In this document: positions 50,257-53,200 of the stretch, in pieces
How the letters are laid out: every line of letters starts with the position of its first letter
Position numbering within the stretch: position 1 is the stretch's first letter
Origin: Planctomycetota bacterium
GTDB taxonomy: Bacteria; Planctomycetota; MHYJ01; JACQXL01
DNA: 64,000 bases
NCBI GenBank assembly: GCA_038059695.1
Contig: JBBTIZ010000069.1
Coordinates: 2,969 to 66,968, forward strand
Direction: 5' to 3'
Translations under genes and position numbers: made by a program
Notes under the pieces: model-generated
What the model saw: the letters and a program-made list of their open reading frames with translations, nothing else
Databases searched by the model: none
What the model was told of the DNA's origin: nothing

Positions 50257-53200
50257 TTATCGGGCAAGAATTTGTTCCGCCGCTACATTCTGGGATAAAT
50301 TCCGGTGTTTGGAATTATCCAAATACTCATTGAGCGAGGAGACCTGCATCCGGCCTTTGCGGACCAGTTCAATGGCATTGGCCGCGGCCCGGGCCGCAGT
50401 AATGGTGGTGATAAACGGTATGCCCAGTTCCACAGCCAGGCGCCGCATCCGGTAGCCGTCCCTTTTTGGCCCGCTTCCTTCAGTCGGCGTATTGATAATG
50501 AGTTTGACCTTGCCTTCCCGCATCAACGAGAGCGCATTGGGCGTCTGCCGTTCGCTGATGCGCCAGACCGTGGTCACCGGAATATTATTATTCGTCCCCG
50601 AAAAAATCGGGGCTCCGCCGCCGCTCCGCAGATATTCGGCCGTGCCTTTGGTGGCGATAATCGTCAATCCGTTTTCCGTCAGTTTGCGGGCAATCGGGGC
50701 AATCTTTTCCTTGTCCGAATCGCAGACCGTGATATAGACCTGGCCTGCGGTGGGCAATGAATTCCCGGCCGCCAGCAACGCCTTGTAATACGCCAGCCCG
50801 AATGATTTGTCTATGCCCATAACCTCGCCGGTGGATTTCATCTCAGGCCCCAAGATGGCATCCACCCCGGGCAGTTTCATAAACGGGAATACCGGCGCCT
50901 TGACCGAGACATAATCCACCTGCACCATTTCAATCAGTCCGAGTTCCTTGAGCGTGGCGCCCAGCATCAGTTTGGTGGCAATCTTGGCCATGGGGATGCC
51001 GATGGTCTTGGAGACATAGGGAACGGTCCGGCTGGCCCGCGGGTTGGCCTCAATCATATAAACCTTATTGTCCTTGACGGCCAACTGGATATTAATCAGC
51101 CCGATGGTCTTCAATGCCAGGGTCACCTCTTTGGTTATGCGCTTGATTTCTTCAATAATCTCCGGCTTGAGCGTCTGAGGCGGGATGACACAGCCGGCAT
51201 CGCCGGAATGCACCCCGGCCTCTTCAATGTGCTCCATAATCGCGCCGATAAAGACATCCTTGCCGTCCGACAGCGCGTCCACATCTATCTCCACGGCATT
51301 GGAGATATATTTATCCACCAGCACCGGATGTTTCTTTGATATCCGAGCCGCCGAGGTGATATAGAATTCCAGGTCCTTTTCGTTATGGACGATTTCCATA
51401 CCCCGGCCGCCCAGGACATAACTGGGCCGGACCAGGACCGGATAGCCAATCTTGGCGGCCAGCTCGCGCACCTCATCAAATGAATAGCCTGTATGCCCTT
51501 CGGGCTGGATAACGCCCATCTTGCGCATCAAGGCCTCAAACCGCCTGCGGTCTTCAGCCATGTCTATGGAATCAGCCGGCGTGCCGAATATTTTCGTCTT
51601 GAGGTCTTTGCGTTTGCTCAACTCGGCCTGGAGCGGCATAGCCAGATTAACCGAGGTCTGGCCGCCGAACTGGACCACCACGCCATCCGGGTTTTCCAGT
51701 TCAATAACATTCATAACATCCTCAAAGGTCAGCGGCTCGAAATAGAGCCGGTCCGAGATGTCGTAATCCGTGGACACGGTCTCGGGATTGTTATTGATGA
51801 TGATGGCCTTGATGCCCTGTTCGCGCAGGGCCATGACGCCGTGCACACAACAGTAATCGAATTCAATGCCCTGGCCAATGCGGATGGGTCCGCCGCCCAG
51901 GATGAGGACCTTATTCAGTTCAGAGTTTAGAGTTCGGGGTTTGGAGTGATGACTCTCCGAACTCCCAACTCCTATCTCCGAACTTGATTCATACGTCGAA
52001 TAGAAATACGGGGTCTTGGCCTCAAACTCAGCCGCGCAGGTATCCACCATCTTGTAAGAAACATTTATGCCCAGCGCCTTTCGATGCGCCGTAATCTTCG
52101 GCTCGTCTACTCCTAACACATAACCGATATATTCATCCGAGAATCCCATCTGTTTCAGATGATAGAGAAATTCTTTGTCCAGATTGTTCACCCCGTTAGA
52201 GATAGAGATTGCTTCGGTCGTTTCACTCCCTCGCAATGACGTCATTGCGAGTGGCGCCGCAGCGGCACGTGGCAATCCCGTACCGCATGACCCTTCTATG
52301 GTACCAATAGTGCTATCTCTAACGGGGCCAAGACCCCTTCGTTTCAATTCCTGTTCGGCCTTTACTATATTATGGAGCTTATTAATAAAGAAGATGTCCC
52401 ACTTGGTGATGTCGGCCAACGTGGTCGGCTGGTAACCCCGGCGCAGGGCTTCGACAATGGCAAAGAGACGCTTGTCGGTCGGCTCAACCAGTTCGCTAAG
52501 CAGCGTGGACTTGGACCAGGCCTCTGGCTCAATGGCAATCCGGTCTGTCTCCAGCGAGCGGACCGCCTTCATAATGGATTCCTCGACCGTCCGGCCGATG
52601 GCCATGACCTCGCCGGTGGATTTCATCTGGGTGCCGATGCGCCGGTCCACGGTCCGGAACTTGTCAAACGGCCAGCGCGGTATCTTCATAACCACATAAT
52701 CCAGTGCCGGCTCGAACGAGGCAAAGGTTTTCCCCGTCACCGAATTGGGGATTTCATCCAGCGTCAGCCCGACTGCAATCTTGGCCGCTACCCGGGCAAT
52801 CGGATAACCAGTGGCTTTGGAGGCCAGGGCCGAGGAACGCGAGACGCGCGGATTGACCTCTATGACCCGGTATTGTCCGTTGGCCGAATTAAGCGCAAAC
52901 TGAACATTGCATCCGCCTTCGATACCCAGCGCCCGGATAATCTTAAGCGAGGCATTGCGGAACACCTGATGGTCACGGTCGGACAAGGTCTGGGACGGCG
53001 CGATGACAATACTCTCGCCGGTATGAACGCCCATCGGGTCAAGGTTTTCCATATTGCAGATGATGATGCAGTTATCGTTCTTGTCGCGCATCACCTCGTA
53101 TTCATATTCAGCCCAGCCCAGCACACATTCTTCTATCAAAACCTGCTTGATGCGGGAATAACCCAGGCCCAGGGTAACGATTTCCTCGAGCTGTTCCTTG

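Follow-up and report, generated by a model that had tools for sequence, protein, structure and literature searches.

Selfish DNA that sits in frame within core enzymes has largely been regarded as a curiosity of Rickettsia. The Rickettsia palindromic elements (RPEs) are ~100-150 bp long, have a conserved interior and peptide within each family and are confined to this genus (Ogata et al. 2000, cited after PMC10969869). [quoted passage not shown] Here we analyse a stretch of 64,000 nucleotides (64 kb) from a Planctomycetota bacterium (contig JBBTIZ010000069.1; hereafter the window), in which a 137-bp hairpin-ended element, E4, lies in frame within carB, the gene encoding the large subunit of carbamoyl-phosphate synthase. 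We consider it probable (roughly 0.8) that a DNA transposon, non-autonomous and MITE-like, makes up these 137 bp, having inserted itself into carB, where, behaving like an RPE, it is tolerated as a translated loop. The element belongs to what is apparently an undescribed family of very short transposons lying in frame inside core genes of many uncultivated phyla; in-frame residence is here a general property of a family defined by its termini. Searching the literature by sequence and by keyword, with incomplete coverage, so that absence is no proof, we found no description of this family.

The carB insertion is absent from the closest orthologues

The features of the carB locus are as follows.

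50257-53754, minus strand: carB, 1165 aa, intact
52191-52327, in frame on the minus strand: E4, 137-bp hairpin-ended element in carB, peptide GPVRDS...SISNGV
52191-52205, plus strand: left arm of E4, CCCCGTTAGAGATAG, ten invariant bases and a copy-specific extension
52313-52327, plus strand: right arm of E4, CTATCTCTAACGGGG, exact inverted repeat of the left arm
52187-52190, plus strand: left 4-bp flank, TTCA (TGAA on the minus strand), presumed copy of a target-site duplication, now diverged from its partner
52328-52331, plus strand: right 4-bp flank, CCAA (TTGG on the minus strand), presumed second copy of the duplication
52207-52277: 71-bp palindrome nested in E4, GATTGC..CTCGCAATGAC/GTCATTGCGAG..GCAATC, a member of a second repeat family

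The original prediction, made from the window alone, had proposed that two 15-bp complementary arms bracket an in-frame palindromic insertion in a core enzyme. Both arms were confirmed in the sequence, and the minus-strand open reading frame (ORF) of carB gives exactly the peptide that had been quoted. In the alignment with Escherichia coli CarB (PDB 1bxr), residues 1-474 and 521-1129 of the window protein correspond to residues 1-480 and 480-1055; the 46 residues left unaligned match the ~46 that had been predicted to be added to the oligomerisation domain.

The nearest relatives of the window CarB come from metagenome-assembled genomes (MAGs) of Planctomycetota. Neither P0001 (90% identity, 1119 aa) nor P0002 (89%, 1101 aa), the two closest orthologues, has the insert: the junction reads ..ELKLRG-FG-KLDKEF.. 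in P0001 and ..ELKARG-IN-KLDKEF.. in P0002, against ..ELKRRG-L[GPVRDS...SISNGV]N-NLDKEF.. in the window, and none of the orthologues aligned carries a homologous peptide at this site. The gene order (carA, carB, queC, a tetratricopeptide-repeat gene, a 151-aa ORF, miaA and hisS) is the same in the window and in both relatives. By nucleotide alignment with the two nearest orthologues, the window carB has a net gain of 141 bp (137 + 4), i.e., 47 codons, and in silico excision of these 141 bp yields an intact CarB of 1118 aa (..RRGL(N/G)NLDKEF..) of orthologue-like length at the junction. The window derives from groundwater, a metagenome of Hainich well H41 (ENA ERZ1292630), and an identical CarB protein is recorded on two contigs. 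The dN/dS of carB is 0.10 and 0.095 against the related loci L121 and L122, respectively, close to the value of 0.076 between these two relatives, indicating that the gene is under normal purifying selection. The claim of an in-frame insertion in a core enzyme thus holds: the orthologous site is empty, carB is intact and this copy is not decaying. Judged from these alignments, E4 is an insertion and not an ancestral loop, probably acquired in the recent ancestry of this planctomycete.

An AlphaFold2 model of residues 380-620 (mean predicted local distance difference test score, pLDDT, of 75) shows the insert as coil with pLDDT 43-56, between flanking helices with pLDDT 79-98. The insert is hence predicted to form a disordered loop within an otherwise intact oligomerisation domain.

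Other CarB proteins of this planctomycete clade (P0010, P0013, P0017, P0027 and P0011) have several different lineage-specific insertions, mainly low-complexity and repeat-like stretches of the inter-domain linker, and in these lineages CarB seems to have received insertions repeatedly. The window CarB also has ~10 extra residues near the allosteric domain (..LRSGGGAPIFSGTNNNIPV.. versus ..LVNNKVPV.. in P0001), which derive from neither of the two repeat families described here.

E4 belongs to a family defined by its termini

The 10-bp terminal core of E4, CCCCGTTAGA, occurs exactly seven times in the window, where 0.09 occurrences are expected; none of 100 shuffles reached seven. Reference genomes, one per species (596 Gb), were scanned with the pattern CCCCGTTAGA-N(40-70)-TCTAACGGGG, for which we estimate a chance expectation of ~17. 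At least 119 stretches bear this pattern. Among the matches listed, with groups taken from the record titles, 49 are from the Candidate Phyla Radiation (CPR)/Patescibacteria, 34 from Planctomycetota, 5 from Deltaproteobacteria-type organisms, 4 each from Omnitrophota, Cloacimonadota and Nitrospirota, 2 each from Bacteroidales and Gammaproteobacteria, and 1 each from Nitrospinota, KSB1, Elusimicrobiota, Stahlbacteria and Ratteibacteria, while 10 are unclassified. All but one of the matches listed come from MAGs; the exception, Patescibacteria AH-259-L07, has no MAG label and is taken to be a single-cell genome.

The anatomy of the family was deduced from 134 non-nested copies, in which arm positions 1-10 are set by the search pattern. 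The 4-bp sequences flanking the element are identical in 62 of 133 copies, compared with 2 of 131 for shifted control 4-mers, and have the form YNNR, mainly TTTA, TTCA, TAAA, TCAA, TTGA and TGAA. The arms extend to 13 bp: positions 11, 12 and 13 are complementary in 96%, 86% and 75% of the copies, and pairing falls to chance level from position 14. These three positions vary among copies yet co-vary between the two arms. Compensatory changes on both sides, at arm positions 11 and 12 and at one inner hairpin pair, were found among related copies from four genomes. Most interiors are unique (115 of 134 are singletons by blastn). Near-identical copies exist inside single genomes (L010/L084 and L003), showing recent activity of the family. 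An unbiased scan of the family loci for short inverted repeats flanked by 4-bp duplications returned CCCCGTTAGA termini 52 times, TCCCGTTAGA twice and CCCCGTTAAA once; on 737 kb of unrelated metagenome loci the same scan returned no such termini.

Copies are 38-137 bp long, mostly 60-80 bp, with peaks at 62, 65, 68, 78 and 80 bp. Lengths of the class 3n+2 predominate (71 copies versus 37 and 26 in the other two classes).

Some copies stand in tandem exactly 4 bp apart (E-CTCA-E) or form composites with an extra right end (L010, 2942-3105; L084, 7-223), and L003 carries a 90-nt composite on either side of a clpB/C-type gene (4187-4276 and 6963-7052). These arrangements suggest insertion next to or into existing copies.

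Copies inside genes keep the reading frame

Twenty-three of the 134 copies (17%) lie in frames that stay open over 50 codons or more in both directions, and all 23 are of length 3n+2; none of the 63 copies of other lengths lies in such a frame. As 53% of random positions in the same loci fall in open frames by this measure, the elements are depleted from genes and the intragenic survivors are those that keep the frame. In only 8 cases does a copy that is not read through interrupt an ORF that in silico excision would repair.

The conserved ends contain stop codons in one phase only, CCC-CGT-TAG on entry and TC-TAA on exit; in copies of length 3n+2, the phase closed on entry is also the one closed on exit. 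The two open phases produce peptides of the form xPVR...SNG[VA] (~20 cases) and xPLE...LTG (3 cases). In addition, the interiors of 3n+2 copies have 2.53 open frames of the 4 permitted, compared with 2.06 +/- 0.10 after shuffling. Since all read-through copies are of length 3n+2 and interiors are poor in stops, these data argue for selection on translated inserts, not for their precise removal before translation.

The host genes are real and mostly essential; among their products are SecA, DNA polymerase III alpha (DnaE), a class II aminoacyl-tRNA synthetase, Sua5/TsaC, HypD, an NDP-sugar dehydratase, a PurM-like protein, dihydroorotate dehydrogenase (DHODH), LeuD, a pyruvate:ferredoxin oxidoreductase-like enzyme and sulfatases; Asd and an FKBP isomerase carry copies too. 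A second CarB, from a Candidatus Doudnabacteria (CPR) MAG, has acquired an independent in-frame copy (L120, 1770-1837; NVQYAVN[PVRSRSPQGGRSRARSGAASNGV]NLEVIEVN) at a site different from that in the window, in the first ATP-grasp domain.

Filled and empty sites in the window and its relatives

Besides E4, three elements with the same 10-bp core had been reported in the window, and all three are present.

1539-1618: E1, 80 bp, flanked on both sides by CTGG (1535-1538 and 1619-1622)
1610-3391, minus strand: 593-aa ORF, host of E1, which lies two codons ahead of the stop; the TAG of E1 is now the stop codon
44929-44996: E2, 68 bp, right after ATG-CTC of miaA and in frame (TPLEMNTQGRFMGQCLSNSSLTG)
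44925-44928 and 44997-45000: flanks of E2, TGAG on the plus strand, CTCA on the gene strand
44017-45012, minus strand: miaA, tRNA dimethylallyltransferase (Pfam IPPT), host of E2
47327-47431: E3, 105 bp, right arm with a 1-nt insertion, an extra A (TCTAAACGGGG), flanks TGAG and TGAA

As had also been claimed, the four window copies share no similarity in their interiors. E1 is inserted in the closed phase: the 593-aa product keeps its length and only its last residue is altered (..SQPD* to ..SQPR*). E3 lies between genes unless a doubtful tandem-repeat ORF (46941-47405), whose start it would overlap, is real. This ORF consists of 21-bp (GKKSVVT-type) repeats and has its start codon and a signal-peptide-like N-terminus inside E3; it is not called by the public gene caller and may be spurious.

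The miaA locus provides an empty site for comparison. In L121 the sequence reads GGTATG-CTCA-GGATAATC and MiaA starts MLRIIIGQTASGKS, whereas miaA is filled in the window (ATG-CTCA-[68 bp]-CTCA-GG) and in L122 (CTTA[68 bp]CTTA). The presence of a single CTCA in the empty L121 site and of CTCA on both sides of E2 demonstrates a 4-bp target-site duplication. The flanks of E1 and E3 agree with this. The L122 element is orthologous to E2, with a related interior. The two differ at 7 of 68 positions, all interior, while the arms are unchanged. On translation, these seven differences yield six amino-acid changes, which fits a peptide that is tolerated and not itself selected.

Taken against the usual description of MITEs, the family has terminal inverted repeats, a duplication with empty sites (in miaA and carB), and copies that are small, non-coding and multiple (four in the window). 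Its 13-bp terminal repeats and 4-bp duplication give it the build of a cut-and-paste transposon.

A second repeat family is nested in E4

The inner palindrome that had been pointed out within E4, GATTGCTTCG..CTCGCAATGAC/GTCATTGCGAG at 52207-52277, was recovered, as was its second occurrence.

10049-10120: intergenic relative of the nested palindrome, same second family

The 11-mer core of this second family occurs six times in the window, against 0.69 expected; a further position is at 20715-20725. Its ends have the form GATTGC(T/C)(T/A)CG...CG(A/T)(A/G)GCAATC around the CTCGCAATGAC/GTCATTGCGAG core, and its outer ends, GATTGCTTCG..CGAAGCAATC, delimit at least 120 metagenome stretches (loci L125-L244). 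In these, we looked for a flanking duplication and found none, and the three length classes are evenly filled (39:34:33), with no modulo-3 bias. It is therefore a different kind of repeat, probably closer to the REP/REPIN kind than the first family is, and doubles as an internal control against which the modulo-3 bias of the first family can be read. Without the nested palindrome, E4 would measure ~62-65 bp, the most frequent lengths in the first family, and the insert in carB is thus a composite of two elements that is still in frame. The second family was also seen as a peptide (..SLRGTESRSNP..EIASLPLAMT..) in the linker of another CarB protein, P0004.

Proposed mechanism and alternative explanations

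A transposase that acts in trans and makes 4-bp staggered cuts is suggested by the terminal inverted repeats together with a duplication that is constant in length and variable in sequence. In the scheme that we propose, such an enzyme would recognise the 13-bp terminal repeats (CCCCGTTAGA and three variable positions that co-vary between the arms) and insert the element at YNNR sites, mostly TNNA, duplicating 4 bp. Because the commonest lengths are 3n+2, the element and its duplication add whole codons; with stops in one of three phases (TAG on entry, TAA on exit), the ends read as PVR...SNG or PL...LTG in the other phases. A copy that combined a tolerant surface loop, an open phase and a stop-free interior would survive, be transcribed and be translated. 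The positions of two window copies illustrate this filter: E1 lies near a stop codon, where the closed phase is harmless, and E2 lies in frame right after a start codon. In carB, a second-family palindrome is nested inside a first-family element, and the resulting 47 residues, placed between two helices of the oligomerisation domain and predicted to form a loop, would leave the enzyme functional.

Several observations weigh against this interpretation. On the gene strand, the flanks of E4 are TTGG and TGAA and agree at one of four positions; the 4-bp duplication in carB is not directly visible and is deduced from the 141-bp net gain and from the pattern of the family. Retention of the element in carB mRNA and protein would follow from the frame statistics. 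The sample consists, among the matches listed, of MAGs and single-cell genomes only. Unrelated interiors beneath invariant ends are unusual among bacterial MITEs, and simple double-stranded cut-and-paste does not explain the compensatory change in the arms, which hints at a step that depends on the hairpin. Finally, a search of 1.69 Mb of DNA from the loci retrieved, for exact or one-mismatch end pairs 250-7000 bp apart with matching flanks, turned up neither an autonomous element nor a transposase bearing these ends. The candidates from this search were rejected: L114 is a housekeeping block, L067 a ribosomal-protein operon and L003 the clpB/C gene between composite copies, while the unpaired ends in L050 and L068 belong to short, degenerate copies. 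When 685 long ORFs from the loci were clustered all against all, every cluster was of housekeeping genes. A phage vehicle was likewise dismissed, as only 2 viral contigs carry the pattern.

Could the element be removed before it is expressed? An intron-like or programmed excision, taking out the element and one flank copy precisely at the RNA or DNA level, would explain why the terminal helix is strong and conserved, with its pairing maintained by compensatory changes, and why removal of the element with 4 bp gives an orthologue-like CarB, MiaA and C-terminus of the 593-aa ORF; moreover, piggyBac-type elements with similar ends and duplication are established to excise seamlessly. However, if copies were excised, neither their length nor their interior stops would matter, yet the read-through copies are all frame-preserving (23 of 23) and the copies of other lengths are never in frame (0 of 63). 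Only 8 copies interrupt an ORF that excision could restore, interiors are depleted of stops, and the one closed-phase copy in the window lies two codons from a stop, where truncation is harmless. We therefore regard excision as very unlikely.

Selection on structure is another way in which the carB copy might be kept, if the hairpin, in RNA or single-stranded DNA, had been co-opted for a role such as translational pausing, the binding of a protein or the stability of the mRNA. The four window elements do fold as strong hairpins, far more stable than shuffled sequences (z = -5.4 to -8.2). The compensatory changes in related copies from four genomes (arm positions 11-12 and the inner hairpin) and the unchanged arms of the orthologous miaA copies, whose interiors differ at 7 of 68 positions, point in the same direction. 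Conserved arms are equally expected, however, if the ends are needed for transposition. In addition, different copies have unrelated interiors, close relatives manage with an uninterrupted carB, none of the elements matches an Rfam family and the covariation sample comprises only four sequences; a functional hairpin is accordingly an unlikely explanation. That the insert is not mobile DNA at all, being a lineage-specific expansion of a CarB loop or an assembly artefact that is palindromic by chance, is hardly credible: although other CarB proteins of the clade have lineage-specific insertions of their own, the same 13-bp ends and 4-bp duplications recur at three other sites in the window and at the 119 or more loci found elsewhere, miaA offers an orthologous pair of empty and filled sites, and the same CarB is found on two contigs.

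If the MITE-like transposon that we favour is taken further, a bolder proposal can be made, which we offer tentatively: the copies may form a single, still-active, cross-phylum family of ultra-short, coding-compatible transposons, moved by a class of transposase with which they have so far not been connected, and the compensatory change of their arms would imply a hairpin step, in single-stranded DNA or RNA, in transposition or function. As part of the same tentative proposal, the 13-bp ends open in two of three phases, the 3n+2 lengths with a 4-bp duplication and the stop-poor interiors might together constitute a coding-compatible design. Were this the case, excision may be seamless, making insertions into proteins reversible, and the design would allow them to reside in essential genes even where genomes are streamlined, as in CPR, Planctomycetota, Omnitrophota and others.

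Implications

The family spans at least a dozen uncultivated lineages, including those with very small CPR genomes, in which most insertion sites are coding, and it offers a concrete source for unexplained lineage-specific loops in the proteins of these organisms. The junction signatures xPVR...SNG[VA] and xPLE...LTG could serve to annotate and mask such inserts. The copies also amount to a natural experiment on the places at which an essential protein can accommodate 20-50 additional residues. The combination of unrelated interiors, invariant ends and compensatory arms is a lead to a transposition mechanism worth identifying.

Other features of the window

Several further repeats and variable segments were observed in the window.

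17907-18263: ~13.5 tandem copies of the unit GGAGGTTATGGCAAATCCGGCC, period 22 bp (super-period 66 bp), overlapping a spurious-looking ORF (18026-18373)
56137-56423: tandem array with a 22/44/88-bp period, ~13 copies of the unit TTATAATAAACCCTATGTCCTT, in the spacer upstream of carA
53801-54781: 326-aa KYDDKGN-repeat protein (78/156-bp DNA repeats), between carA and carB
6038-6697 and 49319-50188: ORFs with similar N-termini (MANELRRDRESEH.. and MNNELRRDRDSEL..), otherwise different

The carA-carB interval holds a methyltransferase gene in L121, and carA and carB are adjacent in L122. The ORF at 49319-50188 has a Bro-N domain and lies in a variable carB-queC segment that the relatives lack. 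In the Rfam scan of the window, the only match above the gathering score was a tRNA at 11645-11716.

Comparison with known systems

Several known classes of repeats were considered and set aside. Integron attC sites are 57-141 bp long, with conserved inverted core sites, a variable centre and a structure more conserved than the sequence. The present elements resemble them in length range, in their GTTRRRY-like/RYYYAAC-like inverted core sites and in their variable centre; the order of the cores is reversed, however (GTTAGA first, TCTAAC last), 4-bp duplications are present and copies are solitary and intragenic, with no cassette array or integrase. REP/REPIN elements, which are extragenic, carry a GTAG or CGTC tag and make no target-site duplication, are ruled out by the CCCC ends, the 4-bp duplications and the intragenic copies. 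Uptake-signal sequences, introns and inteins were rejected on duplications, size or frame statistics. One oligonucleotide for the 77-bp inverted repeat of Porphyromonas gingivalis contains the 10-mer (PMC3969353), but the arms there are 77 bp long and we judged it unrelated.

Among transposons, piggyBac duplicates a 4-bp T..A target (TTAA, with variants TAAA, TCAA and CTAA) and has ends starting with CCC (PMC10813416). The present family is similar to piggyBac/IS1380 (4-5 bp duplicated in IS1380) in duplicating 4 bp of the form TNNA/YNNR and in its CCCC ends. Two plasmid-borne elements of the IS1380 family have the ends CCTGAATTATTCA and CCTGAATAATTCATA (CCTGAAT...) with 5-bp duplications, and the end of ISEcp1 is CCTAGATTC... 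Membership in IS1380 is unsupported: these ends share only the leading CC with the CCCCGTTAGA family and the duplications are of 5 bp. Plant Stowaway and Tourist MITEs have short terminal repeats, a fixed duplication and heterogeneous interiors, and are cross-mobilised by transposases that require only the ends; they differ from the present family in being eukaryotic, in their larger size and in duplicating TA or TWA, and they are not known to reside systematically in frame within coding exons.

With respect to RPEs, the likeness drawn in the original prediction stands as one of behaviour; the elements are not members of the RPE families. As in the RPEs, short palindromes lie in frame in many unrelated housekeeping genes, are translated and are apparently tolerated at surface-compatible positions. 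The present copies, however, are mostly 60-80 bp long, share only their 13-bp ends, with constant junctions (PVR../..SNG or PL../..LTG), have clear 4-bp duplications and occur in many phyla, which sets them apart from RPE-1 to RPE-10 as these have been described. The bacterial MITEs are likewise non-autonomous, with terminal inverted repeats, target-site duplications and occasional in-frame fusion with host ORFs. Their interiors are related, however, their host range is narrow and their in-frame cases are a minority by-product, whereas the present family is defined by its termini only, frame-preserving lengths dominate, and 17% of the copies sampled are read through inside genes, many of them core genes.

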